Source of the DNA: Escherichia phage SP27 | Sequence record: LC494302.1 | DNA: 64,000 bases | Strand: one strand, 5' to 3' | Part shown: positions 5,026 through 49,900 of the stretch, in pieces | Layout: each line of letters begins with the position of its first letter | How positions within the stretch are numbered: the first letter of the stretch is position 1 | Position numbers and translations under genes: made by a program | The notes under the pieces: model-generated | Seen by the model: the letters and a program-made list of their open reading frames with translations, nothing else | Databases searched by the model: none | What the model was told of the DNA's origin: nothing

Positions 5026-5053
5026 AAAAAGACTCCTATATGGAGTCTTTTTC
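5026..5053 (+). terminator. Rho-independent terminator
   Basis: AAAGACTCC-TATAT-GGAGTCTTT hairpin then TTT. Confidence 0.5.
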
Positions 5054-5071
5054 ACATTATGTGATATAATG
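5036..5071 (+). promoter_or_regulatory. Early-type promoter with extended -10 (ATGTGATATAAT)
   Basis: TCACAT-T-ATGTGATATAAT about 27 nt upstream of ATG 5098; weak -35. Confidence 0.4.
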
Positions 5072-5097
5072 ATAATATTAATCTTAAGGAACCTAAC

Positions 5098-5367: not shown

Positions 5368-5385
5368 TATACATGGAGAAGTATT

Positions 5386-6012
5386 ATGGAAAGACAAATA
5401 ATTGCAATTAACGGTACTATTGGAAGTGGTAAAGATACTTTTGGAGAAACTTTTATTAATAATGGTTACACCAGAATGTCATTTGCAACTAATCTTAAAG
5501 ATTCTGTTGCTGCTATTTTTGGATGGGATCGTGAAATGCTTGAAGGTTCAACTAAGGAAAGTCGTAAGATTCGTGAAGAACCGGACCAGTACTGGTGTGA
5601 TAAGTTAGGTCGTAATGATGTATCCCCTCGATGGGTATTGCAGAATTATGGTACTAATATTTTGCGTAAGTATTTTCATAATGATATTTGGGTATTCAGT
5701 TTAGAAAAATCAATGCAAGACATAGATGGAAATATCATCATCACTGATTGCCGTTTTCCAAATGAATTAAAAATGATTAGATCGAATAATGGGACTATTA
5801 TTGAAGTTCAACGTGTTCTACCACATTGGTATGGTTTGGCGGCCTCTTATAATAAAGGGGATATTAATATTAAACCAGTTGAACTAGAATCAGTACACGA
5901 ATCTGAGTGGGCTTGGATTGGCATAAACAATCCTGATATAATTGTACAGAATAACAGTACTATTGATGATTTACATAAAAAAGCAATGGACATTATTTAT
6001 TCTAATACATAA
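5386..6012 (+). CDS. Deoxynucleoside monophosphate kinase (T4 gp1-like)
   Basis: P-loop GTIGSGKDT and ITDCRFPNELKMIRSNNGTIIEVQR, resembling the T4 gp1 DTRQ…ATVIHVVR region from memory. Confidence 0.7.
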   Translation: MERQIIAINGTIGSGKDTFGETFINNGYTRMSFATNLKDSVAAIFGWDREMLEGSTKESRKIREEPDQYWCDKLGRNDVSPRWVLQNYGTNILRKYFHNDIWVFSLEKSMQDIDGNIIITDCRFPNELKMIRSNNGTIIEVQRVLPHWYGLAASYNKGDINIKPVELESVHESEWAWIGINNPDIIVQNNSTIDDLHKKAMDIIYSNT

Positions 6013-6106
6013 ATTATAAACAATAAGGACTGGACAATTAAATCCTTCAATAAATAAGACTATACGAATATATTTCGAATAACCAATTATTTTTGGAGGA
6101 TTTAAT

Positions 6107-8770: not shown

Positions 8771-8776
8771 AACACT

Positions 8777-8806
8777 AAGGGAACCTTTTGGTTCCCTTTT
8801 TTATTG
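8777..8806 (+). terminator. Rho-independent terminator after the sheath gene
   Basis: AGGGAACC-TTTT-GGTTCCCT followed by TTTTTTATT. Confidence 0.6.
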
Positions 8807-8849
8807 ATTAAAATTAAATACCTTTATATTGATGTTATAAAGGAACATT

Positions 8850-8975
8850 ATGGATATGGAAGAAATACTAAAAAAAACAATACAAGATGTCAGTAAAATA
8901 GTTTTAACTCAGTTGGAATCAGTACACATACTAAATATATTTTTAAAAAATTTGGAAGATTGTCGGTATAATTGA
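8850..8975 (+). CDS. Possible small ORF (41 aa) in the sheath-tube intergenic region
   Basis: ATG 8850 after AAAGGAAC; MDMEEILKKTIQDVSKIVLTQLESVHILNIFLKNLEDCRYN; below the ORF-track cutoff. Confidence 0.2.
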   Translation: MDMEEILKKTIQDVSKIVLTQLESVHILNIFLKNLEDCRYN

Positions 8976-9165
8976 AAAATACGAAGTATACACAAATGGA
9001 AAATGGTCTATATCAGTAAACTATATTGACCACACTAAACGAAAAAGATACTTATATTGTGTTAATATTAATTGGTTCCCTGTTGATGACACTTTAGTTA
9101 ATTAAAAATATACTTCCAGATAGATAAATAATATAAAGATGTCATTCCATAATAGGAGAATATAA

Positions 9166-21519: not shown

Positions 21520-22113
21520 ATGAAAAAGAATGAATTAGATGAAGCAATTAAAGGTTTATCTAATGTATGTTTTAGTGGCGGGGCAGCAGGTGCTGACCGC
21601 CTTTTTTCTATCTATGCAAAAAATAATGGATTTGAAGTTATTAATTTTTCATTCAAAGGTCATGAGCATAGTGTAGATGAAAGTACTATATTAGAAATAC
21701 CATCCAATATTCTATCTGATATTTCTATATTAAATCAACTAAACATTGCATGTTACTCGTTGCAGCGAAAAGTACCAAAACCTGGTTCTTATGTTTACAA
21801 CTTACTTGCAAGGAATAGTTATCAGATACTTAATACAGAAAGAATATATTGTATTGCAAATATCACATCACCAACTAAGGTAAGTGGTGGTACTGCATGG
21901 GCAGTACAGATGTATATGGATTCAGTTGAAAATCCTGAAATTTATTGTTATGATATGAATTCACGTTCAGTATTTTATTTCGATACAGTACTGAAAGAGT
22001 TCACACAAACATTCGTCGTTCCAGCACCACATGGTAACTGGACTGGTATTGGTTCACGCAATGCCACCGAAAAACATATGGAACATTTTATTACATTTTT
22101 CAAGGAAGAATAA
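21520..22113 (+). CDS. Rossmann-like protein with an SLOG/DprA/LOG-type glycine motif
   Basis: FSGGAAGADRL and GGTAWAVQM resemble SLOG-superfamily nucleotide-binding loops; stop overlaps the thyA start. Confidence 0.4.
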   Translation: MKKNELDEAIKGLSNVCFSGGAAGADRLFSIYAKNNGFEVINFSFKGHEHSVDESTILEIPSNILSDISILNQLNIACYSLQRKVPKPGSYVYNLLARNSYQILNTERIYCIANITSPTKVSGGTAWAVQMYMDSVENPEIYCYDMNSRSVFYFDTVLKEFTQTFVVPAPHGNWTGIGSRNATEKHMEHFITFFKEE

Positions 22114-23042
22114 TGAAACAACTACAAGAACTATATCAAAAAATTCTAGATGAAGGCGTAGAAAGCGTTGACCGTACTGGTGTTGGAACAATCAAACTTA
22201 TCGGTCAACAAATGCGTTTTGACCTTAAAGATGGTTTCCCAGCAGTGACGACAAAACGTCTAGCTTGGAAAGCAATGACTTCAGAATTACTATGGTTTAT
22301 TGAAGGTTCCCATGATGAGCGTCGCCTTTGTGAAATTTTGCATGGAACTCGTGATACAGAAAAGAAAACTATTTGGACAGATAATTACCTAAATCAAGGC
22401 GTTGCTCTTGGTTATACTGATGGTGAGTTAGGTCCAGTGTATGGTAAGCAATGGCGTGAATGGGAAGATTATAAATTTAGTTCCAGTACTGAAGAAATTC
22501 AAGAATTAAAAGATAAAGGATACAAAGTTATCGATTATACTGGTTCACATGGTGTTGTTATGAAACGTACAACTGACCAATTACAAGAACTAATCAAAGG
22601 TATAAAGTCCGATCCATATGGCCGTCGCCACATTCTAAGTGCATGGAACGTTGGTGAGCTTGATGATATGACGTTACCACCTTGTCATAGCTTTGTGCAA
22701 TTTTGTGTAGTGCAAGGAAAACTAAGCTGTATTCTGCATCAACGCTCCGCTGATCTATTTTTAGGAGTTCCATTTAATATCAGTAGTTACTCACTACTAA
22801 CTCATATGATTGCACAAATTACTGGTTTAGATGTTGGTGAATTTATTTGGAATGGTGGTGATTGTCACATTTATAAAAACCACGTTGAACAAGTAAAAGA
22901 GCAACTACAGCGAAAACCTCGTGAATTACCTGAATTGTGGCTTGATCCTACAATTACTAATATTGAAGATTTCACTATGGATTCTTTTAAATTAGTGAAT
23001 TACAACCCAATGCCAACAATTAAAGCACCTATGGCTGTATAA
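22113..23042 (+). CDS. thyA: Thymidylate synthase (ThyA / T4 td-like), uninterrupted
   Basis: DRTGVGT, catalytic PPCH, QRSADLFLGVPFNISSYSLL, C-terminal IKAPMAV; collinear with E. coli ThyA plus one insertion. Confidence 0.9.
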   Translation: MKQLQELYQKILDEGVESVDRTGVGTIKLIGQQMRFDLKDGFPAVTTKRLAWKAMTSELLWFIEGSHDERRLCEILHGTRDTEKKTIWTDNYLNQGVALGYTDGELGPVYGKQWREWEDYKFSSSTEEIQELKDKGYKVIDYTGSHGVVMKRTTDQLQELIKGIKSDPYGRRHILSAWNVGELDDMTLPPCHSFVQFCVVQGKLSCILHQRSADLFLGVPFNISSYSLLTHMIAQITGLDVGEFIWNGGDCHIYKNHVEQVKEQLQRKPRELPELWLDPTITNIEDFTMDSFKLVNYNPMPTIKAPMAV

Positions 23043-25125: not shown

Positions 25126-25905
25126 TTAACGTATACGTTCAGGAATATCAACACCTTCATATACCCAAGTTGCAGCTTGTTGTGCCTTATAAATTGCATC
25201 AGGATCTAAATCATCAACTGCATCAATTGCTGCACACTGATTGTCACATTCTGTAAACAATTGCTCAATCATAGCAAAGGCTCCAGTGTATAGTTGTGTC
25301 ATTTCAGTAGCAGATAATTTTACAATTGCGTCATCAAGAAAAATAGAAACACTTTCAGAACCTGAAGTGACTTGTGTATAGTAATTAAGAAGCATTTGAC
25401 GACCAGACATATCAGTACTGTAACGATGACCATTGAACATATAACCAGAATTCATACGATTTGTACGTTCTGATATAGTTCTTGCTTTTAAATCAACTTT
25501 AACATCTGCTATTGGCATATCAATATAATGATATGTTTTAAGAACAGTTAGTGCTTTATATTCTTCGGTAGCGTCTTCTAAAAATTCAACAATAGGTTGA
25601 TTTTCATCTTTTAATTTAATAAACTCCAACGGTTGTTCAATAGCATTAACATTTCCAACATTTTTATACACTAACCACCAAAAACCTTCTTCTTTTCTAA
25701 CAGCATCATTAGGTTCTACTGGGGAACCATCTTTACTTGAAATACCATAAAGAGTTCTAATATCACTATAAAGATAACGATAGGTTTGTGGATCTTCTGG
25801 TGTTGCACCAGGACGTTCTTTAAGTCCTTTTACACCAATTGGATTGGAAATAATGTTTCCCAATTCATAATTTTCTTTTGAATTTCCTTTCACATATGTG
25901 AACAT
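25126..25905 (-). CDS. Hypothetical protein in the fiber cluster (possible fiber accessory protein)
   Basis: 259 aa; RBS GTGAGGTAG. Confidence 0.5.
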   Translation of the reverse strand: MFTYVKGNSKENYELGNIISNPIGVKGLKERPGATPEDPQTYRYLYSDIRTLYGISSKDGSPVEPNDAVRKEEGFWWLVYKNVGNVNAIEQPLEFIKLKDENQPIVEFLEDATEEYKALTVLKTYHYIDMPIADVKVDLKARTISERTNRMNSGYMFNGHRYSTDMSGRQMLLNYYTQVTSGSESVSIFLDDAIVKLSATEMTQLYTGAFAMIEQLFTECDNQCAAIDAVDDLDPDAIYKAQQAATWVYEGVDIPERIR

Positions 25906-25969
25906 ATAACTACCTCACTTGTTATGATGGTGTCACCCAAAATGAGTGACACCTTTATTATTATAATTA

Positions 25970-28900
25970 TTAAGCAGTACGTTGTGCAATAAACATATCT
26001 GTTACTGGACTCACACCGTCATAAATGACTTGGTAGATAGTTACAGAGTTTGCAGTTTTGTTCAGTGTGCCATCAACAACCGCATAAGTACCATCAGTAG
26101 TAAAGTTTCTATTACCTGTTGCATCTTGTTTCACATAAATGTATACTGAAGATGCTTTACCACCACCGATTAGACCAGTGATTGGTGCTAGAGTGGTATC
26201 TTGATCTAGAGTGATAAAGTATACGTTGCTAGTACCGTCTGGGGTCCAAGTACCAGTTGGTGCGATAACAGAAGAAGTTACTTGATTAGGAATAACATCA
26301 TATTTTTTAGTAGTTACTGTTGTTGTAGTTAGGTCAGCATTAGTAGTTGTCAATTGACCAGTTACAGTTACATCTTTATCAAATACTGCATTTTCTTTGA
26401 AAGAAGATGTTGCATTGACAGTTAATGTATCAGCAGCAGCGTCACCTAAAACAACACTACCATTTGCAGTCATTAAACCAGTAACAGTTAAAGTACCACC
26501 GATTGTTGCTGCTCCAGTAACAGATGCACTAGCAAGTGTTGCTGCACCAGAAGTAGTAATGGTAGTTACTGAAGTTGCTGCTAGGGTTGCAGTACCTGTT
26601 GCAGAAATATCACCACCAACAGTTAGGTTACCAGAAGTAATTCCAACGGTTCCAGTAATGTTAGCACCACTTGACATCGTTACTGCACCACCAAATGAAC
26701 CAGTAGTAGTTACTTCAAGGGTGTTCCCTTTTAGTAGACCAGTTGCAGTAATACTTGTACCTGCGGTAATACTAGTACCAGCAGCAACACTGTTGGTTGC
26801 AGTTAATGATTTAACAGCTACATCAGAGTTTGCTTGGTTTAGTGTTGCGTTTAGTAGACCAGTTACTGTAAAGTTACCGTTGTTAACTACGTTACCATTG
26901 ATTGTTAAGTTGTTGTTTTGTGAACCAACATCACCAATAGTTGCTGATTTGGAAATCAACTCTGCACCAGAAGTAATGTTACCCGCTGCACTAATAGTGT
27001 CAGCCGCAACAACTGCATAAGGTTCAATTGTTTGACCACTAACGTCAATATCAGCGTTGATACCACCATCTACACGCAAGGAGCCTGCAATGTAAGTATT
27101 AGGGAAAATCTGAACTGTCTCTGGTTGATCACCAATTTTAGTACCGATAATAACATCAGAACCAGTTTTAACTGCACCAGAGGTTGTTAGAGAACCTAAA
27201 GTTGTAGCACCAGTTACACCTAATGTTCCACCAATTGTTGCGTTATTGGTAACTGCTAATGCAGCACCTTCACCATTAAGAGCGATTGATGGAGCAGATA
27301 CTGCACCAGTTACGCCTAATGTGCCACCAATTGTTGCGTTGCCATCTGAATGTAGAGTTGTAGCTACAGAAAGACTGTTAGCAACTACATCAGTACTAGC
27401 TAAATCCAATGCACCTGGGGTTAATGTACCAGTAATGTTAACATTATTACCAAAGGTTGCTGCACCAGTCACATCTAGTGTAGTACTAAATGTACCAGAG
27501 GTTGCAGAGATTGCACCTGAATCTAGTGATCCAACAGTTGCTTTACCAGTTACACCTAAAGTTCCACCAACAGTTCCATTTGTGGTTACATCCAATGTAC
27601 CAGTACTTAGTTCTTGTGCGGTTACCTTACCGGATGCAGTAACAGTTGAAGTGGAAACGCCACCAGTTAGAGTACTAGCACCAGTAACACTTAATGTGGT
27701 TGCAGCAGTTACGCTATTTACGCTAAGATCAGCACCGGATAAGTCCAAACCACCTTCAGGAACAAATACACCCTTAACAGTTAGTTTTTGTACTGTACTA
27801 TCACCTGTTACATCCAAGGTAGAAGCAGTTAAACCACCATTCATACTTGCTGCACCAGTAACACCTAGTGTAGTGGTTACAGTAGCACTATTAAGTGTTG
27901 AACTACCAGAAATATTAGCACTAGGAGCAGTAATAGTTCCAGAATCAACTTGTATACCACCAGCAACAACCTGAATTCCACCAGCATTAACTGTTAGTTT
28001 ACCAGCAGTATTCAATGTATTTGAAACTGTTGTTGCACCAGTTAAAGTTGTAGTACCAGTTACACCTAAGTTACCAGAAATAGATGGACTACCTGTAATA
28101 TTACCAGTAGTTAGTATCAAATCAGTACCTACGGTAGTGGAGCCAGTACTTTCTAGTGTCACACCAACGATGTTTGCAGAACTTAGGTTAATAGTACCAT
28201 CAACAGTTAAGTTACCTTGAACGGTTGCATCACCTAGAGAAGTTAATGTCTTCACAGACACATCAGTTGTGCTAAGATCAATAACACCCGCAGTTAGTGT
28301 TCCAGATACTGCTAAATTACCAGTAATCGCGGTATTTTTAGTAATGGATACATTTTCTGCCGCTGAAGTAATAGAACCAACAGTAAGTACACCACCAACA
28401 GTTGCGTTATTAGTTACATTTAGAGCAGTTCCAACACCAGATAGTGTTGCTGACCCACCAGTAATTGCACCTGAGATTGAAGCTGTTGCTGCTGAAACAT
28501 CACCAGAAACTACTGCATTTGTTGCATTTAGAGCAGACACTGTAACTTCAGTACTTTGAACTTTAGGTAGAACGTTGATACCTTCTGCACTACTAACTGT
28601 AATAATACCAGTACTTGTTAGAGATTTAACAGATACATCAGCACCACTTAAATCAACTGTACCAGAAACAACAAGATCTCCACCAATATTTGCTCCAGCG
28701 GTAGTAGTAATGGATTTTGCACTTACATCAGTTGTGCTCAAATCAATTGCACCTGGTGTTACTGTACCAGAAACTGTTAGGTCACCAGTAATAGATGTAT
28801 TATTGGAAATAGATACACCATCAACGTTACTAATTGTTGGGGTTTCTACAGAAACTGCTTTAACTTTACCTGAAGAAGTTACGTCAGCTACGGTAGATGC

Positions 28901-31495
28901 ACCAGTAACATTCAAATTAGTAATATTTGCAGTTGTTGAACCAAGGGTTGCAATAGTTGCATCAGTACTTTGAAGTTTAGGTAGAACACTACTAATTGTG
29001 GATTCATTACTAACAATTGCACCAGTACTAGTTAAAGATTTGACAGTAACATCAGCCGTAGTAAGATCTACTGTACCATTAACAGTTAGGTTACCACCAA
29101 TAGTTGCACCAGCAGTAGTAGTAATGGATTTAGCATTAACATCAGTTGTTGCTAGATCGATAGAGCCTGGAATAACTGCACCAGTAACGGTTAGGTCACC
29201 AGTTACATTTGTATTATTGGAAATAGTGACACCACTTGCATTTGAAATGGTTGGGGTAACCAACGATGCAGTTGTAGTTTCACCAGTTACAGTTAAAGTT
29301 GACCCAACTAGAACAGATGAGCTTGAGTAAATTGTACCCAAATTAGCAGATCCGGTAACAGTTATATCATCAGCATTAACAGTAGGAGCCGTTATGGTAG
29401 TACTATTAAGTACTGGAAGTACGTTAGCATTAACAAGATCATTACTTTTAACAATACCAGAAGTAGTTAATGATTTAACATTAAGGTCGGCTGCTGATAA
29501 ATCAAAAGAGCCTTGAACTACTAAATCACCACCAATAGTTGCACCAGCAGTAGTAGTGATTGATTTAGCATTAATATCGGTAGTGCTCAAGTCTAGAGAA
29601 CCAACAGTTAAGCTACCAGTAATATCAACATTTTCTGTAAAGTTAGTATTACCACTAATAGTTGGTGCAGTCAGAGTTGTTGCACTAATATTAGTACCGT
29701 TAATTGTTTGTCCACTTACAGTCCCACTCGCAGTGATAGTAGGAGCCGTTACTTCAGTAGATGCACTAATTGTTGGTGCAGATACAGAAGTTGTACCAGT
29801 AATAGAACCAGAACTTACTGAACCAGCGGATAATGCACCAGAAAGAGTTGCAGTTGTACCAGCAATATCACCAGTAACAGTTAGTTTAGCACCCACGGTA
29901 GTGTTACCAGTACTTTCAAGTGTTGCACCTTTAATATTTGCTGCCGCGACAACAGAATTAGGTGTTAGATCCTGCCCACTAACATCAACAGTTAGCCCAG
30001 TTACTGTTCCAGTAAATTCAACATCATTAAGAATTGCTTTACCACCAACTTGTAGGAATGGTGTACCTGGAGCTTGTGTTTCGTTACCAGTAATAGTTAG
30101 GTAATCTAGTTTGTTTAGACCGTTACCAGTAATACCATAAGTGGAAAGAGAAGCGTTACCGAAAGTTGCTGTTTTAAGAACGTTCAATGTAGAAGGAGAA
30201 ACGACTTCTGATTGAACTTCGTTAGGTAGAATAACTGTTGGGCGTTGACCTGGTGCAGTATATCCAAAACCTAGTTTCACTGCCGCATCTTGACTATTTT
30301 GACCTAAGCTGATAGCTTTAAAGGATGCAGTACTGTTATAACCAGTAATATTAGAACCAAGAGTAACACCACCAACTAATGAAGTTACACCAGTAACGTT
30401 CAAAGATACTGCATTAATATCGTCTAGTTGGAACGTTCCACCAAGAAGACCAGAAACATTAATGTTATTAAAATTAGCAGTACCAGTACTTTCGATATTT
30501 GGAATAGTTGCAGTTCCGGTTACTTCAAAGTCAGCAACTTTAGTTTTTCCTTTTTGAACTTCTAATAGTGGTGTGTCTGGTGATTGTGTATTGTTACCAG
30601 AAACTGTTAGATAATCTAATTTGTTTAGACCATTACCAGTAATACCATAAGAAGATAATGACGCATTACCAAAAGAAGCAGAGGTCAATACTGTCAAGTT
30701 TGCAGGTGACATTAGCTCGGACTGAATTTCGTTTTGTAGAATAACAGTTGGGCGTTTACCAGGAGCAGTGTAAGGGAAGCTTAATCTGAAGGTTTGTGAT
30801 TCAGAGTTAGAACCAATACGAATGTCTTTAAAAGTAGCAGTACTGTTAATACCAGTTACGTTAGCACCGAAAGTTACTGCACCTTGTTGGTTAGATGCAC
30901 CAGTAACGTTCAATGTTACTGCATTTAAGTCAGATAGATTAAACTCACCACCAAGTGTACCACTAATTGTCACATCGTTAAATGTAGCAGTACCAGTACT
31001 ACTAATATCTGTTGTACTTACATTAGTAATTTCTGCGGTATTAGCATTAATTTTATCAAATGCAGCAGTAGTCCCAACATCAGCAGTAATATTACCTTTA
31101 AATGCTGTTGTTTCAGCAACTTCTAAGTTTTTAACTTTAGTTGCTTGTAGAGTGGTTGTACCAGCAGTTTGTGTAAAATCAGAACCAACTGATACAGTAC
31201 CGTTAAAGGTAGCGTTTGAATTAATTGTTGCTGTATCAGACCCGACAACTGCACTACCGATTGTAGTATTACCCTCAACACCAAGACCACCAGAAAGTGT
31301 TGCTTTGCCACCTACATCTAAAGTAGATGTAATGTTGGCAGTTGATGATTCAATGGCAGTAAAAGTTGCATTTGCAAAAGTTACAGTACCATTTACAGTT
31401 AGGTTATTGTTGAAAACAGCATTTCCTTTGACTAAAAGATCCTTACCAACCGTACCAGCACCAGTAATATCTAAGTCAGTTTTTATTGAGTACAT
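25970..31495 (-). CDS. Very large tail fiber / surface fiber protein (1841 aa) with tandem repeats
   Basis: T/G/S/A/V-rich; about 140-aa units (IDLSTTDVxAKSITTTAGAxIGGxLxVxG…VKSLTxxG) repeated at least 4 times, plus a 2-copy N-terminal duplication; RBS GGAGGG. Confidence 0.65.
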   Translation of the reverse strand: MYSIKTDLDITGAGTVGKDLLVKGNAVFNNNLTVNGTVTFANATFTAIESSTANITSTLDVGGKATLSGGLGVEGNTTIGSAVVGSDTATINSNATFNGTVSVGSDFTQTAGTTTLQATKVKNLEVAETTAFKGNITADVGTTAAFDKINANTAEITNVSTTDISSTGTATFNDVTISGTLGGEFNLSDLNAVTLNVTGASNQQGAVTFGANVTGINSTATFKDIRIGSNSESQTFRLSFPYTAPGKRPTVILQNEIQSELMSPANLTVLTSASFGNASLSSYGITGNGLNKLDYLTVSGNNTQSPDTPLLEVQKGKTKVADFEVTGTATIPNIESTGTANFNNINVSGLLGGTFQLDDINAVSLNVTGVTSLVGGVTLGSNITGYNSTASFKAISLGQNSQDAAVKLGFGYTAPGQRPTVILPNEVQSEVVSPSTLNVLKTATFGNASLSTYGITGNGLNKLDYLTITGNETQAPGTPFLQVGGKAILNDVEFTGTVTGLTVDVSGQDLTPNSVVAAANIKGATLESTGNTTVGAKLTVTGDIAGTTATLSGALSAGSVSSGSITGTTSVSAPTISASTEVTAPTITASGTVSGQTINGTNISATTLTAPTISGNTNFTENVDITGSLTVGSLDLSTTDINAKSITTTAGATIGGDLVVQGSFDLSAADLNVKSLTTSGIVKSNDLVNANVLPVLNSTTITAPTVNADDITVTGSANLGTIYSSSSVLVGSTLTVTGETTTASLVTPTISNASGVTISNNTNVTGDLTVTGAVIPGSIDLATTDVNAKSITTTAGATIGGNLTVNGTVDLTTADVTVKSLTSTGAIVSNESTISSVLPKLQSTDATIATLGSTTANITNLNVTGASTVADVTSSGKVKAVSVETPTISNVDGVSISNNTSITGDLTVSGTVTPGAIDLSTTDVSAKSITTTAGANIGGDLVVSGTVDLSGADVSVKSLTSTGIITVSSAEGINVLPKVQSTEVTVSALNATNAVVSGDVSAATASISGAITGGSATLSGVGTALNVTNNATVGGVLTVGSITSAAENVSITKNTAITGNLAVSGTLTAGVIDLSTTDVSVKTLTSLGDATVQGNLTVDGTINLSSANIVGVTLESTGSTTVGTDLILTTGNITGSPSISGNLGVTGTTTLTGATTVSNTLNTAGKLTVNAGGIQVVAGGIQVDSGTITAPSANISGSSTLNSATVTTTLGVTGAASMNGGLTASTLDVTGDSTVQKLTVKGVFVPEGGLDLSGADLSVNSVTAATTLSVTGASTLTGGVSTSTVTASGKVTAQELSTGTLDVTTNGTVGGTLGVTGKATVGSLDSGAISATSGTFSTTLDVTGAATFGNNVNITGTLTPGALDLASTDVVANSLSVATTLHSDGNATIGGTLGVTGAVSAPSIALNGEGAALAVTNNATIGGTLGVTGATTLGSLTTSGAVKTGSDVIIGTKIGDQPETVQIFPNTYIAGSLRVDGGINADIDVSGQTIEPYAVVAADTISAAGNITSGAELISKSATIGDVGSQNNNLTINGNVVNNGNFTVTGLLNATLNQANSDVAVKSLTATNSVAAGTSITAGTSITATGLLKGNTLEVTTTGSFGGAVTMSSGANITGTVGITSGNLTVGGDISATGTATLAATSVTTITTSGAATLASASVTGAATIGGTLTVTGLMTANGSVVLGDAAADTLTVNATSSFKENAVFDKDVTVTGQLTTTNADLTTTTVTTKKYDVIPNQVTSSVIAPTGTWTPDGTSNVYFITLDQDTTLAPITGLIGGGKASSVYIYVKQDATGNRNFTTDGTYAVVDGTLNKTANSVTIYQVIYDGVSPVTDMFIAQRTA
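28200..29700 (-). repeat. In-frame tandem DNA repeats (about 420-430 bp period, 3-4 imperfect copies) inside the fiber gene
   Basis: Recurring block ccaccaatagttgcaccagcagtagtagtaatggatttagca… near 28690, 29100 and 29530; boundaries approximate. Confidence 0.6.
30050..30820 (-). repeat. Two-copy segmental duplication (about 480 bp apart) inside the fiber gene
   Basis: ttgtttagaccgttaccagtaataccataag… at about 30110 and 30600 (protein GNASLSxYGITGNGLNKLDYLT twice); boundaries approximate. Confidence 0.55.
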
Positions 31496-31588
31496 TTATA
31501 CCCTCCATTATAACCTTGTTAATATGTATATATTTAGTTTTATTATGCTGTTATCCAACAATTAATATGTTATTTGACAAAAGCAAAT

Positions 31589-31628
31589 ATAATAAAAACC
31601 AGACTTATTTAGAACAAGTCTGGTTAAT
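31589..31628. terminator. Hairpin terminator with T-runs on both sides
   Basis: CCAGACTT-(9-nt loop)-AAGTCTGG flanked by AAAAA upstream and TTAATTTTTTTT downstream. Confidence 0.45.
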
Positions 31629-32546: not shown

Positions 32547-34688
32547 TTATGGTAGGGTTATGTAAGTTACGGGTTGGGCAGCTTTTAATGCTGCACCAGC
32601 GGCAGTTGCTGTTATGATAGGATCTGCAATATCAATTCTATATACGTTGTTTACAACATACACTGCACGAGTTATATACGTTCTCAAATCACCACCATTT
32701 TCACCAGCACCGGATATAATGATCTCAGTACCAGCAGCTTTTGCATATTGGTTTTCACCCCATGACACACCCAATGCTTCTATGTATGTTTGTCCTGCTA
32801 CCGTTTGTCTAATTGTGTCATATTTTCCGAAAAAAGAACCACCAACAGTTACAATATATTTTCCACCCGATTGTTTATGAATAATCGTGCCTTCAGAGAA
32901 ATAGCGTCCCCCAGGAAAAGTATCGTATGGAATATAATATTGCTCAACTACAGGTATCAGTACTGGGCCACGGTGTCCTGTACCATCGATTGCAGTTGTA
33001 ACTTTAAAGTTATTAGATGATTGGTCTATTCTGTCTACATACATTTTAGAAAAACTATATTTTGAAACATTACAATCATCTTGAACAACACAGTTAGTCC
33101 AATTAGTATAAGTATATTTAGAGCGAGTATAGATACCACCACCTTCGCCTTCGGTAGAGAGGTGTTGACCAATTACATCTAATTCTTTAGTTCTAATATC
33201 ACTAAATTTAGATGATGATGGCAAACCACGCCAAAGGATTTTAGAACAGGTGATATTGCTCAATTCTGTATTATTTAACCAATTATCAGAACCGGAAGTA
33301 TAAACAAGTATAGAAGACTCTGGAATATAGAGATTAGAAATTTTAAAGTTTCTAGGTGGTCCAGCAAAACGACCAGAAGTTACACCCCAGTTTATTGAAA
33401 CCATTCTATTTGTGATAGAAGGATCATTAAGCAAATGACCAGTCAACCCATCAATAATGAATTCTTTCGAACCATAAGTTATAACACCAGCAGTGGTTAA
33501 TCCAGTACCAACAGAAACTAAAGATGATGGATAAACTTCATTATTAAGTATTTTAAAGTCCATTCCTAATTCAACGTGGATACATTGTCTAACATTATAT
33601 AGTCTGTTATTTTTAATAACAAAGTTTCTGACATATTGTGTATCTGGTGCATCTAAACCATAAGGACCAGAACCAGCAACGCCAATACCAATGCCCCAGT
33701 TTGAAAGTGGGATTGGAGCGTTAGAACCATCAACGTTTTCAATTACGTTTCCTTCAATCACAAAACCATCAGGATAATGTGAGTTAATTACGTTTAGTTC
33801 AATTGCATCACCATATATATCATGTATGTGGTTATATGAATATCTACCAACCTTCATTTTCTCACCAGTACCTTGTTGAAGAACACCATACTTACATTGG
33901 GTCATTTCATTAAAGCAAAAATCTATTGTTCCTGGTTGTGTCATACCTTGCATTAAAAATGCAGCAGTACTTGTGATGTTTATAAATTTATTAAAATAAA
34001 ACTTACCATCGCCACCGAAGAATTTTAAATAACATCCAGTAAGTGTTGCAAATTGTATTTGGGAATTAATAACGGATACCATAGTACCACCATTACCAGT
34101 AATAGTTCCCCCAAACCAAGTTACATCTTCCAGGTATATTGCAGTTTTGATACGGTAATTACCACCAGCCTGAATTTGGATTTTATTTTCTTTAGCATAA
34201 GCAGCACATAAATTTACAGCAGCAGTGTCATCAGTTTCGCCATCACCTTTAGCACCAAATTCTTCTGGTGTTATATAAAACTGGGCCTGTTGAACTGTAC
34301 CTCCAGTAATAAGTCCGATGAAATCGCCACCATTTTTACTGGATAGAACTTTTTTATTAATGTATAATGATTTTACCCATGTACCATTACTTTTTGCAAA
34401 AATATCAACAATACCATCTTCATCAATTTGAAAATACGTATTATTGTTCTTTCCTACATCATCGGTAGGGGGTACAACACCAAATAATGCATTAGGGTTA
34501 TCTTCAAGATATTTTACGTTAACTGCTGAATTAGGGTCAGATGAAGTTCCTACCTTCAGTGGTAGGAACTGTTCTCCTAGATAATCTTTTATAGAAACTG
34601 AATCATTGATAAAATTTATTGAAGCACCTTTTTTCCCCAATATGAATTTGGGCTGCATAGTTCCTTCAAAATTAGAAAATACTGCCAT
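32547..34688 (-). CDS. Tailspike-like protein with the shared N-terminal module and a beta-helix-like body (candidate depolymerase)
   Basis: N-terminus MAVFSNFEGTMQPKFILGKKGASI; body has repeated N/G-rich short strands; RBS GGGAGG. Confidence 0.55.
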   Translation of the reverse strand: MAVFSNFEGTMQPKFILGKKGASINFINDSVSIKDYLGEQFLPLKVGTSSDPNSAVNVKYLEDNPNALFGVVPPTDDVGKNNNTYFQIDEDGIVDIFAKSNGTWVKSLYINKKVLSSKNGGDFIGLITGGTVQQAQFYITPEEFGAKGDGETDDTAAVNLCAAYAKENKIQIQAGGNYRIKTAIYLEDVTWFGGTITGNGGTMVSVINSQIQFATLTGCYLKFFGGDGKFYFNKFINITSTAAFLMQGMTQPGTIDFCFNEMTQCKYGVLQQGTGEKMKVGRYSYNHIHDIYGDAIELNVINSHYPDGFVIEGNVIENVDGSNAPIPLSNWGIGIGVAGSGPYGLDAPDTQYVRNFVIKNNRLYNVRQCIHVELGMDFKILNNEVYPSSLVSVGTGLTTAGVITYGSKEFIIDGLTGHLLNDPSITNRMVSINWGVTSGRFAGPPRNFKISNLYIPESSILVYTSGSDNWLNNTELSNITCSKILWRGLPSSSKFSDIRTKELDVIGQHLSTEGEGGGIYTRSKYTYTNWTNCVVQDDCNVSKYSFSKMYVDRIDQSSNNFKVTTAIDGTGHRGPVLIPVVEQYYIPYDTFPGGRYFSEGTIIHKQSGGKYIVTVGGSFFGKYDTIRQTVAGQTYIEALGVSWGENQYAKAAGTEIIISGAGENGGDLRTYITRAVYVVNNVYRIDIADPIITATAAGAALKAAQPVTYITLP

Positions 34689-41580: not shown

Positions 41581-41620
41581 GTTTATTAATTAGAGTGACG
41601 TGAATCACATAGGAGAATAC

Positions 41621-43909
41621 ATGAATCTTACTCAATTGTTCAAAAAAAGCGACGAACTGGCAACATCTCTAGGTCATACATTCTTGACTATTGACCACGT
41701 AAGTGCCACAGTACTGACTATTGATAGCATCAAGAACGTATTTGAAGATATGAACATTGATGCAGACAAACTGCACAACCGCCTGATGAACTATCTTAAA
41801 AATACAACAGTTCCACATGCACCAAAAAGTGTTAAAGATGAAGACGCGAATCGAACTTCACTTCTAGTGAATCGCGTTGTACATGAGCTTTCTAAAAAAT
41901 CAGTTATTGAACAACTAAAAAGTGATGATTTTTCGATTGATGCATATTTTGTTCTATTCGAATGTCTGTCTTTCCCTAACACAGCACTAGAAGCTGCGTT
42001 AAAAGAAGAAGGTGTTAGCTGTACTGAAGCTGCACGTGCATTACAGAAACACGTTGAGTCACTTGATAAAGGTATCAACTTACAAAGTATTAATGACGAA
42101 CCGATTGGAGATAAAAAAGTGGCCCAACAGCAGCAATCATCTAAACAAAAAGGTTTGGAAGACTATACAACGAATCTAACTGCTCTTGCAAAAGAAGGCA
42201 AACTAGATCCTATGATTGGTCGCCAGAAAGAATTGTCTGCATTGATTGAGACTCTTGCTCGCAAAACCAAAAAGAATGCTATTCTCACTGGTGAAGCTGG
42301 TGTAGGTAAAACACAAATCATCGACGGGCTTGCACAAGCTATTGCTGATGGTAACGTACCTGAACACCTGAAAGACGTTGAAATTCTTTCACTAAATGTT
42401 GGTGCATTGACTGCTGGTACTAAGTATCGTGGTGAATTTGAAGAACGCATCGACAATTTGCTAAAAGAACTAAAGAAACGTGAAAATACTATTGTTTTCA
42501 TTGATGAAATTCATATTATGGTTGGGGCTGGTTCCGCAAGTAATGGTTCTATGGACATGAGCAATATGCTTAAGCCAGCACTTTCACGTGGTGAGATTCG
42601 TGTAATTGGTGCAACAACATATGATGAATATCGTAAAAATATCGAGAAAGATAGTGCATTAACTCGTCGTTTTATGAAAATTGACGTAGTTGAGCCGACA
42701 ATTGATGAAACTCGTGCAATTGTTAATGGTTTGAAACCAACGTATGAAAAATTCCATAATGTTGAGTTCACATCTGATGCAATGGATGCTGTAATTTCTC
42801 TCAGTGATAAATTCCTGAAGAATAAGCACTTCCCAGATAAAGCAATTGATCTAATGGATGCTGCTGCGGCTAAAGTTCGTTCACGTGACAACAATAGTAA
42901 GCTAATTACTGCCAATTTGATTCAAGAAGTTGTTGCTGGTATTGCCAATTTGGATATCAACGTGGTTGCATGTACTGAAAGTGATCGTATGCGTAATCTA
43001 CCAGATGCACTACGCTCACGTGTATACGGTCAAGAGGAAGCTATTCAAAAATTAGTTGATAACGTGATGGTAGCTCGTGCAGGACTGCGTGACAAATCTA
43101 GTGTTCAGGGTGCATTTATGTTTGTTGGACCATCTGGTACTGGTAAAACAGAAATTACCAAAGCATTAGCAGACGCAACTGGTGCGGAACTCATTCGCTT
43201 TGATATGTCAGAATTTTCTCAAGAACATACTGTTTCTAAACTAATTGGTTCACCTCCAGGTTATGTTGGTCATGATTCTGGTAACGGTTTACTGTTGGAT
43301 AAAATTGAGCAGTTCCCTAATGCAGTACTGTTACTTGATGAAATTGAAAAAGCAGATCGTAAAGTACTACTAACCTTCCTACAGGTTTTGGATGAAGGTC
43401 GTCTGACTGGTTCTCAAGGTAAAACTGTATATTTTAATAACGTAACTGTTATTATGACTACAAACCTTGGTGCGGCTGATTCAACAAAGCGTAGCATTGG
43501 TATGAGCGGTAGTGACACTGCACAGGACAAGGCAATTAAAGCATTCTTGCCACCAGAGTTTATTAACCGTATTGATAGTATCGTTACGTTTAAAGACCTA
43601 AGCAGTGAAGCTATTGACAGCATCATTGATAAGTTCATGGGTGGTTTGAATGAACAAGTCAAAGACCGTAATGTTAAAGTTACATTAACAAAAGCTGCAC
43701 GTGAATGGCTTGCGAAAAATGGGGTAAAAGTTGGTATGGGTGCACGTCCAATGAAACGTACCATTGAACAAAACATTCGTGTGCCACTAGCTAAAGAAAT
43801 GTTGTGTGGTTCACTTGTGAATGGTGGTAACATTACATTTGATGTTATTGATGGTAAAATCGGTATTAAGCCGAAACGTACCAAAGCTGTAGATAAAGCA
43901 CTAGTATAA
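41621..43909 (+). CDS. clpA: ClpA-like AAA+ unfoldase (Clp protease ATP-binding subunit homolog)
   Basis: Two AAA+ modules ([24 protein letters not shown]), [17 protein letters not shown] loop at the ClpA IGL position; ATG 41621 with AGGAGA RBS. Confidence 0.85.
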
Positions 43910-43911: not shown

Positions 43912-43947
43912 AAAGAAAAGGAGAGCATAATGCTCTCCTTTTTTTAT
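43912..43947. terminator. Bidirectional rho-independent terminator between clpA-like and the giant gene
   Basis: A-rich-GGAGAGCA-TAA-TGCTCTCC-TTTTTTTATT. Confidence 0.65.
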
Positions 43948-46900
43948 TACTTAACTAATAATATATTTTTAATATCATTACCACTAACTTGTAGACTATC
44001 AGTGTATACTGAAAGATCTATAGTGTAACTATTTTGTGTGTAACGTTTTAACATATCATAATTACCTAAATTAATTCCATTGAAAGAATATGTAGTATTA
44101 AGTTTAAAATCATGTTCTGCACTATACATTACACCACGGAGTAAATTATTTGCATTTCTAACTTCAACTTTTTCATATCCAATCGATATAATATCATTCA
44201 TGTTTGCGGCTGAACCGGATAAAACATTATTTCTAATACTATAAGGACTTATTGATTTAGGTTGAGAAACATAGGTTGTATTTTCTTCACTAATGGTTGT
44301 GATGTTAGTAACAGTACCACCAACAACACCGATATACATACCGTCAACCATTGGGAATCCATAAACCCATATCCCTTCATTATTTCTAAACGGTTGAATA
44401 ACACTTGAATCATATTCGATAACGTTGATTTCTAAACTATCAGTCATTTTAGTTCTTGCCAATTCACTAAGAACTCCCGCACCCGTAATTGGTAAGTTAT
44501 AACCGTTATCGATAGTAATTCCATCAACATCAAATATTTCATTAGAGATTATCCAAACGTCAACGTCATCTGGTGTTATTCCGTCATTGTACTTACCACC
44601 ATTTAAAGTAGTATCGTAGAAAACATCATAATTAATTACATCAATGGTGTAATTTCTATTTTGTTCATACAATTTAATACCATTCTTGACAAATTCAGGG
44701 TCAGCAAATGTTCTAACACGAACAATGTTCAATGCTAGAGGCTGTACTGGCTCATTTTGTTGTGCAAGAGTGATGTTATCATAACGGAGAACTGCACCAG
44801 TACTCTCATCAATCAATTCAATCGTTTCCTTACCTGTATTTCTTACAGTGAATAGGATCGGAGTTGTATTGTTTTTGATGTTAGATACACGCAAGATTGT
44901 TTCCCATGTGTGATTTTGATATCTCACAAAATCTTCACCATCAGGAGTGAAAATCATCACCTTATCACCATCAGATAGGTCATTGTCAACTATTTCTGCT
45001 TCAGTTAAGCTATTAATAGATCTCACACGATAGAAATATTTTTCATCAAACTTCGATGTTGTTTTATTAATATCATTTTCAATCTTAGCATATGAAGGAA
45101 TACTTACAATTGCTTCTGTATGTTTATATGGATTGATAATTGCCATACCTTCAGTTTGATATCTGCTGTTATCACGTAATTGTACAAGAGATACATTGTC
45201 AAACCCATATCCATCAACTGTAAATCTAATTTGACCTACATCACGCCCAGAAGGGTTTATGTCAGATATATCCACAATATAAGGATCAACTTCATCATCT
45301 TTAACTTCCCATTTTATTGAAGAAGTTTGAGATTCCAATGCTAGGTTATCAAATGCATTCATATCATTGAAGTACTTAGCTTCAGTAATACTATCAAGTA
45401 TATATTGATAATCAGAATACATTGGATTATTTTGATCTAGTGGTAAATCATCAAGATTTATTTCAGCTAGTTCAACCATTTCACCATTTGTGATAAAATA
45501 ATCTTCCATGAAATCATCAATACTTTGTTCATCAGGTATACTTTGATATACACCGTTAACATTTAAGTAAACATATTTTCGTGGAATCATTGTAATTGCA
45601 TAGATATCAATTGGGGTCTTACTAAGAATCTCTTCAGCTTTTTCGTACTTATCAGTAGCGTCTTTGTCGAATAACCCTCTCATACCTGCTAATACGTGAA
45701 TAGCATCAGTATAGAAACGGGTATCACCACCTACTTCATCATAACGATAAACATATACACCATACTCAACTTCAAGTTTAACTTTTACTTCATAGTCTGA
45801 TGCGTCAGGATTTTTATCTTTAATTAATGAAATGTATTTTTGATACAATTCACTGCTTATTTCAAAATATCCATAGTTATAATCATTACTAGAAGAAAAG
45901 CCTAATGGAAGTCTAGTACTAGGATTGTCATTATAAGTAAGTCCACTAAATCCACATCCAACTTCATCGTGAATTTTCTCATCACTTATATCTTTATAAA
46001 GTTTCAAACGGTTTGCCAATGTGTTATACTGAACATATTGTCTAAGGTCAGTAAACATATCGTTATGCGTTGATTCTTTATAAACACGTTCCAATGTAGC
46101 AGTGAATTCATCAGTTGCTTCTAAATCTTCCGCATGGTCTTTATACCACTGGTTAACGCCATATGCTGTTCCTAGTGTTACATCCAATTCTGGATAGTAG
46201 ATTTGCATTTGATAAGCAATAAGAAGATCGAAAGTTTCTTCACTATATTCTGGGAAAGAATATATATAACGTTGTAATTCATAGTTACTAACAGCATCCT
46301 TTTCATTGGATTGATATTTGTTATTAACACTTACTAATTCATTTATGCTTGCCAAATCTTCATTTGGTTTACACTGAATATTATCATAATGCATAATAAT
46401 ATCAATTTCTTGGAATCTTCTATTTGGTGTAACGAAATCACTTGGTAGTGAACCTACCTGTTCCCATTTTTGGGTAATTTCATTAAATTGAGCGTACTCA
46501 TAATCCCAAATATCTTTTTCAGTTTTGATCCAAGAACCGTCAACGAAAATATATCCATTAGGATCTAAATCATTACATAGACCTTTTATTAAATCATCAT
46601 CAGATGTCTTTTGCTCTATTTGTGAACGAATTTTAGTTCTATAAGGTTTAACTTCTTCAAAATATTCAACAATTTGATTAATCAAATTATCGTTTGAATA
46701 GTTTTGAACTAATGATTGTTCCAAACCAACAATATAGATATATGATGTTTTAAATACCCAATCCACAACACTTTGTTCAACATGTACATATTTGACCATA
46801 TCAAAAACAATTTCGCTTTGATGTAAATCGAAAGAATTTTTGAGTAAAGCTAGTGCTTTACGAACGTTGATTTCACGATTGCTTAGTGAACCATTATCAT

Positions 46901-49900
46901 TATGAACACTATAATCTGCGTAAAGCATATCATTGAGTTCAACTGTACTGTTTTCACGACCAATCGCTTTCCAATAAATTGAATCGCGTGATTGTGATTT
47001 AATATACAATGTCCAAATGTTTTCACTATCGGTAACTCTGATAATATCGCCAACTTGGTAGTTTTTAGTATTAGCATCTTCTAAGCTTGACTCTTGAGTA
47101 TAAGTCGTGTTACTATCATATCCAACATCATACCAATCAGCATATGACCAGTACTGAGTCATGTCTAATGAGGTTCCTAGTGATTCAACATAATCAGATT
47201 GTTTAATCATTTTATGTTGTCCCTCACCTTTGTTTTCTAACGTTATAGTAACAACACTACCCGCGTTTGCTGGACTATTCATTAACTGAATATATCCATT
47301 TTCGTCGAAGTGAATAAAATAAACAGCACTAGAAGTTAATGGATTTGGTAGATATCCACTAGTACTTAAAATAACAGCGTCATTTTCTTTAAATTTATCA
47401 CTTTCAACTGCAATAACTAATTCATTATTGTAAGACAACACACGGAAAGAAACTTCATTAGGGTTAACTTCAGTGGTTTTAACATTAAACACATCTTCCA
47501 TAACAACACTATTAGTGGTTATGTTTTGTGACCTATAATAATTATTAGCACTTTCTACAAAGTTTCTACGAGCTTCTATAACATTTTGGAACCAAGTTTT
47601 GTTTGATCCTAAACCGTTATCAACATCTGGATATAATAAATTAATCACAGAACCTGATTCAGTTGTTTCTTGACCAATTAGTGAGTTCCACATTGAATCC
47701 CAAATTAGTGGGTTAAAGTTATAGCTGTCACCTTCTTTACATAGTTGATACTGGTCATGTTTAACAACTTCAGTACTATCCATGTAATAAGAAACAGTTA
47801 AAATACTGGTATCATCATTCACTTTAAATTGCATATTACTAAGAATAAACGAGTTTTCATTTATTGGAGCGAACCAAGGAATGTTTAGCTGTGTTGGATC
47901 TTTAATAATACGAGCAATGTCAGTACATGATTTCGTTCTGGTATGTAGTGGTGGTACATAAATTGTATCACGTACCCAGAAATAGTATTTTGTTACATAA
48001 CTATCAGTTGAACTATCATATTCCAAAAATGTACTATAATTATCTTCAAGTGCAGTTCCACTTGGTAGATACATAGTATTATTTTTGTTTTTCTTAGCAA
48101 CATCTTTACAGTATTTGTCCCAGTTATATGGCTCAACTGGTGAACAAACCCACTCTAACACATCAATGGTACTATGTGGTAACAAACGGCCCCAGTTGTA
48201 ACGTTTGTATTCATTGGTTGCATCAATATCAACATTACCGTCTGCGTCATAAATTGCACGAGTATAATCCAAATAAAATGCAGTGCTAGTGTTCCACCAT
48301 ACTTGACCAACTTTATCAGCACCCCAAGCCTGGATTAACTCTCCATTACTATTATACTGTGCAGGATCAACTGGTGAAGTATATGTTACGTTTTGCATAG
48401 CCGCACCTGGAATAACACCATTAATTGGGTCATAAACGTTTAGATATAGCTCAGTAATGTTAGTACGTTCATCATATGTCGTTGGACGATCAAATAAAGT
48501 ACTTTGTGGTGCTTTAAAACTATATTTCTTGTCAATGTAAGCTTGACGATCATCAGTACTGGCAAAACGTGATACATAACGATACAAACGTGGACGTGTA
48601 TCTGGATCAGTAAATTCAATATCAATAGAAGTGTCAAATGGAACTACCATAACTTTAGGATCAGAACCAGCAGTATAATATTGACTTTCTACTGTTAAAG
48701 TATCTGGCATAAAGTTAGTTTCATCAACAAAATAATAATAATCACCATCTTCAAGTGGTACATTATCAGTTAAAGTTACTTTACAAAATTGTTCAGCATA
48801 CACATCGGTATTTTCAATAGGTGTTATAGAAACCATTTGTACATTAGTATCAACCAATTCAAAAATGTTCCACAAACCATTACCGTCTTTAAACATCCAC
48901 ACAGATTCAGGATTTTCACCTTTACCATTAGTATAAGTTATGCGGTCATTATATGCAGTACTGAAATCTTTTGTTGTGTACGATACTTCATCCAATGTTA
49001 CTGGACCAATATCTGGAAGTTGGATGTTTTCACTTCTTCCACTACGCATTGGGAATGAGAACTTACCATTTGGACGTGTAATCCAACGAGGATCTTTACC
49101 TTGCTCACCGAAGTATACAATATGATTACCATTACCATTTGAAGTTGCATTTACATCAAAAGAAACCATTTGAGGTTGTTGTTTAAATTGGTCATTGATT
49201 AGTTTAAATTGAAGGTTTTTCTTACCATCAATATTACCATATGTACCAATTTTAAATGCCCATTCTTGTAATGCTTTATATTCATCAGTGTCATATGATT
49301 TAGAAACACGAAGTACACGTTCTAAAACTTGGTTAGTACCTTTATCGTGAATGAATCCTTTATAGAAATCAACACGACTAACATCACTACTAATCATACG
49401 CTGTAGATAATCACGAGATTGATAACCAATCAAATGGTTTGACAACTCTTGTAATTGTACATCACTTACTGGAGTTTCACTATCATAATAATGTTGGAAA
49501 TCCGACACTAATTTTTCAAATGATGGTAGTGTTCCAGCTTCCAAGATAATAAATCCAGGAGCTTGTAGGCGACCAGTCCATGAACCAGTAATATATCCAT
49601 ACATTTTAATTAGTTCTTGAATAGAACCATATGTTGGCTGATAAATGTAATCACCAAAAATAGTTTTATCATCAAAAATAACAGCATGTTCATATGAACA
49701 CAAACTTAAACGAATCAATGCAATGCGTTTATTAGATTCTAAAGTTCTAACAGTGAAGATATTTCCAATACGAGAAGTTTCAATTTCATATTGGCGAATA
49801 CCTTGGTTATTATCATCAAGTAATGACCATACACCACCATTATTTTGCGTAATAGATTGTACTGAACCAAAGTCTGCCCCAAATTTAGCGTTTGCAGCAC

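Follow-up and report, generated by a model that had tools for sequence, protein, structure and literature searches.

The fibre gene and its family

A stretch of 64,000 nucleotides (nt) from Escherichia phage SP27 (sequence record LC494302.1), referred to here as the window, was analysed for the structure of one long gene. This open reading frame (ORF) occupies positions 25970-31495 on the minus strand, begins with ATG and encodes 1841 amino acids (aa) plus a stop codon. A ribosome-binding site, GGAGGG, is located 7 nt ahead of the ATG. The product is rich in T (18.8%), G (12.1%), S (10.6%), V (10.2%) and A (9.9%), and its aromatic content is very low (W 0.1%, Y 1.0%, F 1.9%). An earlier note, made from the DNA letters alone, had described the product as a fibre built from in-frame tandem repeats. 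Its identity as a fibre was borne out by a PHROGs match to phrog_4549, "tail fiber protein" (E 7e-227), and by 99.8% identity to phAPEC6 gp256. The latter, a putative tail fibre of 180.38 kDa, was detected in virions by mass spectrometry from 15 unique peptides that cover 15.9% of it (PMC7247149).

The DNA of the fibre gene is 99.1–99.5% identical (megablast) to that of eleven Asteriusvirus genomes, including slurp01, 121Q, G17, phAPEC6, SHEFM2K and Sharanji. At the protein level, identity to the Asteriusvirus orthologues ranges from 99.6 to 99.8% (tblastn), with 121Q gp571 at the upper value; for 121Q gp571, phAPEC6 gp256, G17, SHEFM2K and slurp01, the megablast and tblastn values together span 99.4–99.8%. 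121Q gp571 carries the database label "long tail fiber proximal subunit". Members of the fibre family are present in 62 phage records across the Rak2-like jumbo phages, among them CBB, GAP32, Serratia BF, the Erwinia pEa_SNUABM phages, Yersinia fHe-Yen9-04, Salmonella Munch and 7t3, Klebsiella fENko-Kae01 and Xanthomonas XaC1. The SP27 protein belongs to it by full-length homology, including an invariant N-terminus and a C-terminal tip of the Pfam family PF26209. The CBB homologue, CBB_226, was likewise detected in virions (PMC5259590). The SP27 ORF is the 180-kDa virion fibre protein of a 121Q/phAPEC6-like jumbo coliphage (Asteriusvirus), a gene that is already known and annotated. Since both gene and genus are known and repeat-built fibres are familiar, the results below add detail rather than new knowledge of the phage group.

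Module organisation of the fibre

The protein could be divided into the following parts, listed from the N-terminus.

31019..31495, minus strand: N-terminal region, aa 1-159; MYSIK.DL start, invariant in the family; presumed virion-attachment end
30509..31018, minus strand: module A1, aa 160-329 (170 aa); homologous to residues 172-328 of the phiTE long tail fibre
29999..30508, minus strand: module A2, aa 330-499 (170 aa); 61% identity to A1
29738..29998, minus strand: linker shaft, aa 500-586; matches residues 328-445 and 448-511 of the phiTE long tail fibre
29303..29737, minus strand: unit B1, aa 587-731 (145 aa); placed by landmark motif and unit alignments
28889..29302, minus strand: unit B2, aa 732-869 (138 aa); placed by landmark motif and unit alignments
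28424..28888, minus strand: unit B3, aa 870-1024 (155 aa); placed by landmark motif and unit alignments
27974..28423, minus strand: unit B4, aa 1025-1174 (150 aa); has diverged furthest among the B copies
27548..27889, minus strand: unit C1, aa 1203-1316 (about 113 aa); resembles the B units but is shortened
27212..27547, minus strand: unit C2, aa 1317-1428 (112 aa); found as a tandem pair in UB, CRJP21 and JP4
26309..27211, minus strand: distal shaft, aa 1429-1729; beta repeats of short period (lag 6), with a short non-repetitive stretch at aa 1450-1500
25973..26308, minus strand: C-terminal globular tip, aa 1730-1841; precomputed Pfam PF26209 and AlphaFold2 (AF2) model

The invariant columns of the N-terminus are M1, Y2, S3, I4, K5, D7 and L8 across 24 homologues.

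Whole-protein self-BLASTP returned the identity match alone. The protein was therefore cut into 120-aa segments, each of which was aligned to the whole, and strong off-diagonal signal was found; the absence of such signal, which the earlier note had named as its refutation, was thus not observed. Two modules lie near the N-terminus at an offset of exactly 170 aa (510 nt), with aa 181-300 and aa 351-470 sharing 65% identity (BLASTP E 5e-52). Over their full length the two modules, A1 and A2, are 61% identical. Between aa 550 and 1200 the segments form a ladder at offsets of 145, 138 and 155 aa, with identities of 64%, 51% and 35–44% and E values of 1e-42 to 1e-20. The same spacings separate four copies of a landmark motif, G-x-[IL]-[DN]-L-[SAT]-[STG]-[TA]-[DN], which begin at aa 632, 777, 915 and 1070; degenerate copies occur at aa 1248 and 1361. 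When units were compared with each other, identity was 57% for B2-B3, 44% for B1-B2, 38% for B3-B4 and 41% for C1-C2.

The repeats were also visible in the DNA. One repeat family (D2) has four copies at spacings of 465, 414 and 435 nt, each a multiple of 3, and another (D10), which corresponds to the N-terminal duplication, has two copies at a 510-nt spacing, with 216 nt at 75% identity. Both levels stood far above shuffled controls. The best off-diagonal BLASTP score was 165 bits, whereas none exceeded 55.5 bits in 40 global or block shuffles, and 152 high-scoring segment pairs of at least 45 bits were found in the fibre against 0–3 in the shuffles. Shared 9-mers numbered 51, 39 and 27 at offsets of 510, 414 and 435 nt, respectively, whereas 16 was the maximum at any offset in 50 codon-shuffled genes. 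Tandem Repeats Finder reported no long-period array in the fibre gene, because the module copies are less than 70% identical.

These results demonstrate that the fibre contains three in-frame tandem module families: two A modules, four B units and two C units, the last being shortened relatives of B. Both proposals of the earlier note are thus borne out: its units of about 140 aa, at least four in number, are the B units of 138–155 aa, its separate two-copy N-terminal duplication is the A pair, and both can be seen in DNA and protein as it had stated. The pair of C units (about 113 aa each; aa 1203-1428) is a third class that it had not recognised.

Whole-module changes among close relatives

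In other phage fibres and in bacterial adhesins, the number of in-frame modules shifts by unequal recombination, which alters fibre length. The same had been proposed for the SP27 repeats, and the comparison with related phages supports it. Global alignment to the CRJP21 fibre (2129 aa), which is 97.6% identical over aligned residues, revealed insertions of exactly 170 aa (a third A), 112 aa (a third C) and 6 aa. The UB fibre (1959 aa), aligned in the same way, has the 112-aa insertion, again a third C unit, and the 6-aa insertion. In P0002, a metagenomic relative (2120 aa), 170 and 106 aa are inserted at the positions seen in CRJP21. Apart from whole modules, alignments of close orthologues contain almost no insertions or deletions. 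The third A copy is carried by CRJP21, JP4, P0002, P0011 and P0012. JP4 is an independent isolate whose 2129-aa fibre gene is organised as in CRJP21 and differs from it at 35 of 6390 nt; an assembly accident can thus be dismissed as the source of the extra modules. Across 31 family members of 1065–2129 aa, counts made with module hidden Markov models ranged from 1 to 3 for A and from 2 to 4 for strongly scoring B units, and C units occur in 2–3 copies among close relatives.

The origin of the third A module could be read from its sequence. In the middle A module of CRJP21 there are 196 informative sites. On the left, 103 of 130 match the downstream module (module 3), and on the right, 55 of 66 match the upstream module (module 1). 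The switch falls at module nt 342-356, within the conserved SYGITGNGLNKLDYL block. This block also holds the longest identical DNA run common to A1 and A2, 19 nt. The extra A module of CRJP21 and JP4 is an A2/A1 chimera, the signature of unequal crossing-over, and is the product expected when A2 of one genome crosses over with A1 of another. What UB, CRJP21 and JP4 carry as an additional C unit is a second C2 in tandem (93% DNA identity), with the motif GGTLGVTG.AT.GSL on either side.

Module number thus changes in whole-module steps between close relatives, in at least one case by unequal homologous recombination of neighbouring modules. As compared to repeat polymorphism in general, the SP27 modules are long (112–170 aa) and already 35–65% diverged; such events should therefore be rare and occur between isolates, with no rapid phase variation. 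What is added to the known gene is a precise map of A, B and C modules and tip, together with gain or loss of whole modules between near-identical phages, including a chimeric junction. This variation offers a clear-cut case from nature of how fibre length evolves and can guide efforts to engineer it.

Relation to the phiTE long tail fibre

In Pectobacterium phage phiTE, the long tail fibre (793 aa; PDB 9CUY/9MJN chain g; UniProt K9L5R6) is homologous in sequence to the SP27 fibre (E 4.6e-30). It has one A-like module, at residues 172-328, that is homologous to the SP27 A modules (E 5e-18), and a B-like shaft as in SP27 (profile E 1.6e-15). Its residues 612-792 match SP27 aa 1657-1838, which include the C-terminal tip (E 5e-13). 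The SP27 fibre therefore shares the phiTE-type order of A-like module, beta-repeat shaft and C-terminal tip. When profiles of 25 B units and of A modules were searched against the PDB, only the phiTE fibre was found, in its unmodelled part.

The two fibres differ in size and in their N-termini. Whereas phiTE has one A module and about one or two B-like segments, the 1841 aa of SP27 hold two A, four B and two C. The N-terminal anchor of phiTE, residues 1-171 (a bundle of helices, a globular domain plus a short beta-helix), is without counterpart in SP27. Likewise, the N-terminal 159 aa of SP27 match nothing in the phiTE fibre, and alignments begin at phiTE residue 172 or 205. Cryo-electron microscopy (cryo-EM) shows the phiTE fibre to be trimeric, and AlphaFold3 predicts it to be an extended beta-helix (phiTE structure paper). 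Because phiTE shares the A-like module, shaft segments and tip and is trimeric, the SP27 protein is most likely an expanded phiTE-type fibre with a different N-terminal anchor, whose shaft is an intertwined trimeric beta-helix.

In such a fibre the chains would form an intertwined homotrimer with a beta-helical shaft, and the A modules may be knobs on it. Each added module would lengthen the fibre by about 7–11 nm, and its total length would be about 120 nm if phiTE scaling (51.2 nm per 793 aa) holds. The periodicity of the sequence was also examined. The hydrophobic period is 5.6–5.8 residues in the B, C and distal regions, and residue-identity lags are 6, 11–12, 24, 30 and 35. AF2 monomer models, built from a 24–25-sequence alignment in two segments (aa 1-1200 and 1130-1841), drew the shaft at low confidence as all-beta, with strands of 3–4 residues at a 6-residue pitch and no helices. 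Together with the sub-threshold Bactofilin matches described below, these features favour a beta-helical shaft.

The T4 fibre gp34 (more than 1200 aa) resembles the SP27 protein in being a long phage fibre; a passage of PMC5537660 describes it as trimeric with repeated domains. However, neither T4 gp34 nor gp37 is similar to the SP27 fibre (BLASTP best E 1.8 and 0.13, respectively), and a PDB search at E<=1 returned no gp34 chain, the solved gp34 C-terminal region included. The label "long tail fiber proximal subunit" is therefore nominal. The genes downstream of the SP27 fibre also differ from a gp35/36/37-like set, and encode instead a 259-aa DUF4376 protein and a 654-aa structural protein.

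The C-terminal tip

The only well-predicted part of the fibre is the tip, where the last ~100 residues have a predicted local distance difference test (pLDDT) score of 83–92 in the AF2 model. The tip model matches many phage tail-fibre C-terminal domains in BFVD, with a root-mean-square deviation of 1.6–2.6 Å over 83–103 residues. Small stand-alone homologues of the tip (116–184 aa) carry PF26209, which is therefore the tip domain. In BFVD the tip domain also ends collagen-like and other fibre shafts.

Among coliphage orthologues of falling overall identity, the tip remains 95–97% identical, and the B units fall to 29–61% with insertions and deletions. The fibres of TH47 (1652 aa) and SP27, for example, are 95% identical in the tip, 85% in the distal shaft and 29% in B1. 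The DUF4376 neighbour is 79–81% identical in phages whose fibre tip is 95–97% identical. The tip is the most constrained element of the fibre and the repeat region the most plastic. This pattern fits a tip that meets a conserved partner on a shaft whose length and sequence are free to vary.

Target and position on the virion

The protein would act as a long and flexible fibre for adsorption. The family-invariant N-terminus would anchor the fibre on the tail, the beta-helical shaft would set its reach, and the conserved tip, possibly with the DUF4376 neighbour, would contact the cell. The likely target of the fibre is the flagellum, which we consider the most likely candidate because phages that carry the SP27 fibre or a homologue have been reported to be flagellum-dependent. 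SHEFM2K, whose fibre is 99.8% identical to that of SP27, is described as flagellotropic in work cited in a passage of PMC11895373. fENko-Kae01 is flagellum-specific (PMC11218385), and its sole long tail fibre gene is a homologue of the SP27 fibre gene. phiTE, the carrier of the homologous long tail fibre, is flagellotropic (phiTE structure paper). The link between the SP27 fibre, the phiTE fibre and three reportedly flagellum-dependent phages points to a candidate for the flagellum-binding structure, and possibly for the "hairs" discussed below.

Taken as a whole, we consider it probable that the gene encodes a modular tandem virion fibre with an anchored N-terminus, a trimeric beta-helical shaft and a cell-contacting tip, with the flagellum as its likely target. 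Several observations weigh against parts of this explanation. The cryo-EM model of phiTE covers residues 14-171 only, which lie outside the part homologous to SP27 (phiTE structure paper). The AF2 models of the shaft are unreliable, with a mean pLDDT of 47 for aa 1-1200 and 59.6 for aa 1130-1841, and Foldseek comparison of the aa 1130-1841 model with the PDB gave nothing at E <1. Low confidence of this kind in a monomer model would also fit an obligate oligomer, although it is no demonstration of one. Conservation of the tip extends to phages whose hosts differ widely, as would be expected of a domain that meets a conserved partner no less than of one that binds a receptor. As for the recombination of modules, identical DNA runs between them are short (13–30 nt), and recombination between them should therefore be infrequent. 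A junction search with the single C2 of SP27 and the two UB copies found no clear switch, and the C difference may be a gain or a loss.

Another location for the fibre has to be weighed. The SP27 protein might form the long sheath (and capsid) "hairs" or "whiskers" of phAPEC6 and CBB and not the six baseplate fibres, a proposal that we regard as possible but unlikely. Length argues for it. The hairs of CBB measure 119 +/- 10 nm, end in tiny globules and have no gene assigned to them, whereas its baseplate fibres measure just 28.6 nm (PMC5259590), and phAPEC6 has six short baseplate fibres in addition to hairy fibres at three sheath rings (PMC7247149). Scaling from phiTE (793 aa, 51.2 nm) gives ~119 nm for 1841 aa and ~100 nm for CBB_226 (1553 aa), although this is a rough extrapolation. 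The SP27 fibre also has a globular tip. Rak2 has no CBB_226 homologue according to the CBB paper, and no hairs are described for it; however, GAP32 has a fibre homologue, yet hairs are not reported for it (PMC5259590). In addition, the fibre gene lies within a cluster of baseplate and tail-fibre genes, and the phiTE homologue is attached to the baseplate. A more speculative extension, to which we assign a rather low probability, is that the fibre forms the ~120-nm hairs of the hairy Rak2-like phages and perhaps their flagellum-capturing organelle, with module gain and loss tuning its length. If the protein does form hairs, unequal crossing-over that adds or removes entire A, B or C modules would tune hair length, and hence reach, between isolates.

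Other folds for the shaft

Two folds other than the intertwined trimeric beta-helix were considered. The first is a single-chain beta-solenoid, that is, a monomeric right-handed beta-helix like that of a bactofilin or an adhesin. The shaft resembles Bactofilin (PF04519) in its short beta strands, its ~6-residue period and its richness in G, V and T. In the Pfam scan at E<=1 a sub-threshold match to this family, at aa 653-746, was the only one obtained (18 bits, cut-off 27.9). The best Bactofilin score in the homologue P0006 was 27.7 bits, and PF04519 is precomputed on P0005, P0006 and P0023. The top Foldseek PDB matches, which were not significant, consist of single-chain beta-helices, among them ice-binding proteins and gamma-carbonic anhydrase, and some homologue records are labelled "autotransporter" or "YadA domain protein". 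However, every Bactofilin match falls below the curated gathering threshold, the SP27 protein is a virion fibre and not cytoskeletal, and the identity lags contain no special super-period of 17–18 residues. The homologous phiTE fibre is a trimer. Single-chain solenoids are usually predicted with confidence by AF2, and AF2 failed on the shaft. A monomeric solenoid thus appears improbable.

Two candidate leads of this kind were set aside. The beta-helix proteins that top the Foldseek PDB list were dismissed as evidence, since their matches are not significant. The label of YadA-like trimeric autotransporter was rejected, as no YadA head, stalk, anchor or Hep_Hag match was obtained at E<=1 in Pfam or NCBIfam. 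The NCBIfam scan of the fibre gave nothing above threshold.

The second fold is that suggested in the earlier note, in which each unit of about 140 aa folds alone as an Ig-like or beta-sandwich domain and the fibre is a string of beads. Unit sizes of 113–170 aa would fit one or two small beta domains, AF2 draws some longer strands (8–12 residues) within B units at aa 612-648, and the A modules, with aromatic and proline-rich stretches, are more globular in look. Nevertheless, no Ig, fn3 or Big family of Pfam was matched at E<=1 in the whole protein or in 17 A modules, and the profile of 25 B units found the phiTE fibre alone in the PDB. The B2 unit, as read, has no aromatic residue, and the B and C units that were read carry few or none. 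The hydrophobic period of ~5.7 residues extends across the B, C and distal regions, and the strands in the AF2 models are short, although of low confidence. Autonomous Ig domains are usually well predicted by AF2, whereas its confidence in the repeat regions was below 50–65. Independent beads are highly improbable, although the A modules may still fold in this way, and this part of the earlier proposal is not supported. The trimeric beta-helix is retained as the preferred fold of the shaft.

ORFs antisense to the fibre gene

Seven plus-strand ORFs of 96–247 aa are present opposite the fibre gene, all in one antisense frame. That frame contains 31 stops, as compared to 135 and 229 in the other two. 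Codon-shuffled genes, in which the repeats are destroyed, had a mean of 32 stops and a longest open stretch averaging 222 codons, comparable to the real gene. Because repeat-free genes give equal stops and open stretches, the cause of the antisense ORFs is codon composition (ACT, GGT, GTT, GCA and similar) and not the repeats. They had previously been put down to the repeats; they are artefacts, as was thought, but with a different cause. It is extremely improbable that they are real overlapping genes even though the GenBank and RefSeq records of PBECO4 list three of them as hypothetical proteins, since codon shuffling reproduces the low stop count, the boundaries of the open stretches shift between orthologues and are not conserved, and substitutions relative to ph0011 are concentrated at sense codon position 3 (504, against 168 and 97 at positions 1 and 2). 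The three annotated products are as follows.

26397-31565 (span in the window), plus strand: PBECO4 antisense hypothetical proteins AGC35229-AGC35231, at 317-1363, 1679-1969 and 4250-4993 of the PBECO4 locus; GenBank/RefSeq annotation

The PBECO4 records (KC295538, NC_027364) are linearised inside the fibre gene, and most of the sense gene is unannotated in them. These ORFs are a warning for annotation: T/G/V/A-rich codon usage leaves one antisense frame nearly free of stops, and spurious ORFs have already entered the PBECO4 RefSeq record.

Neighbouring genes

The fibre gene is part of a minus-strand run of tail genes that encodes, in order, a 387-aa tail protein, a 713-aa spike, a 298-aa structural protein, the fibre, the 259-aa DUF4376 protein and the 654-aa structural protein. 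Baseplate wedge, hub-lysozyme and gp15-like genes lie farther along. The order around the fibre gene is conserved, with the 298-aa structural gene upstream and the DUF4376 gene, a gene of ~650 aa and thymidylate synthase downstream, as observed in 121Q, UB, CRJP21, ph0011, UE-S1 and CBB. Other features near the fibre gene are listed below.

32547-34688, minus strand: 713-aa tailspike-type depolymerase; colanic-acid-degradation PHROG and pectate-lyase-like matches
31597..31625, minus strand: terminator-like hairpin between the 298-aa gene and the fibre gene; 13-bp stem and T-run
25928-25952, minus strand: hairpin directly 3' of the fibre stop codon; without a T-run
25126..25905, minus strand: 259-aa DUF4376 protein, downstream of the fibre; Pfam DUF4376 (E 3e-8) and PHROG 17968, virion structural protein

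The DUF4376 protein may be a partner of the fibre, a tip protein or an assembly factor. Its CBB orthologue, CBB_225, is abundant in virions (PMC5259590). The depolymerase gene sits two genes upstream of the fibre gene, and the syntenic CBB locus is without it. A 3333-aa ORF at 43947-53948 on the minus strand matches phrog_10938, "virion structural protein", and adjoins a baseplate wedge gene (53998-57459). Its counterpart is phAPEC6 gp245 (381.9 kDa), which was detected by mass spectrometry. Two genes among the tail structural genes are on the opposite strand: a ClpA-like ATPase/protease (41600-43909, plus strand) and thymidylate synthase (22113-23042, plus strand).

No fibre paralogue was found within the window, the sole weak match being the 654-aa protein (E 0.001). 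The vB_Ec-M-J branch of Asteriusvirus has two tandem fibre paralogues (locus positions 1-9032). There, EcMJ_305 (1049 aa) and EcMJ_304 (582 aa) resemble one fibre gene split within unit B4, and are followed by the full-length EcMJ_303 (1988 aa). Fibre annotations marked "x2" also occur in the BF17, fEgEco12 and Ecwhy_1 records.

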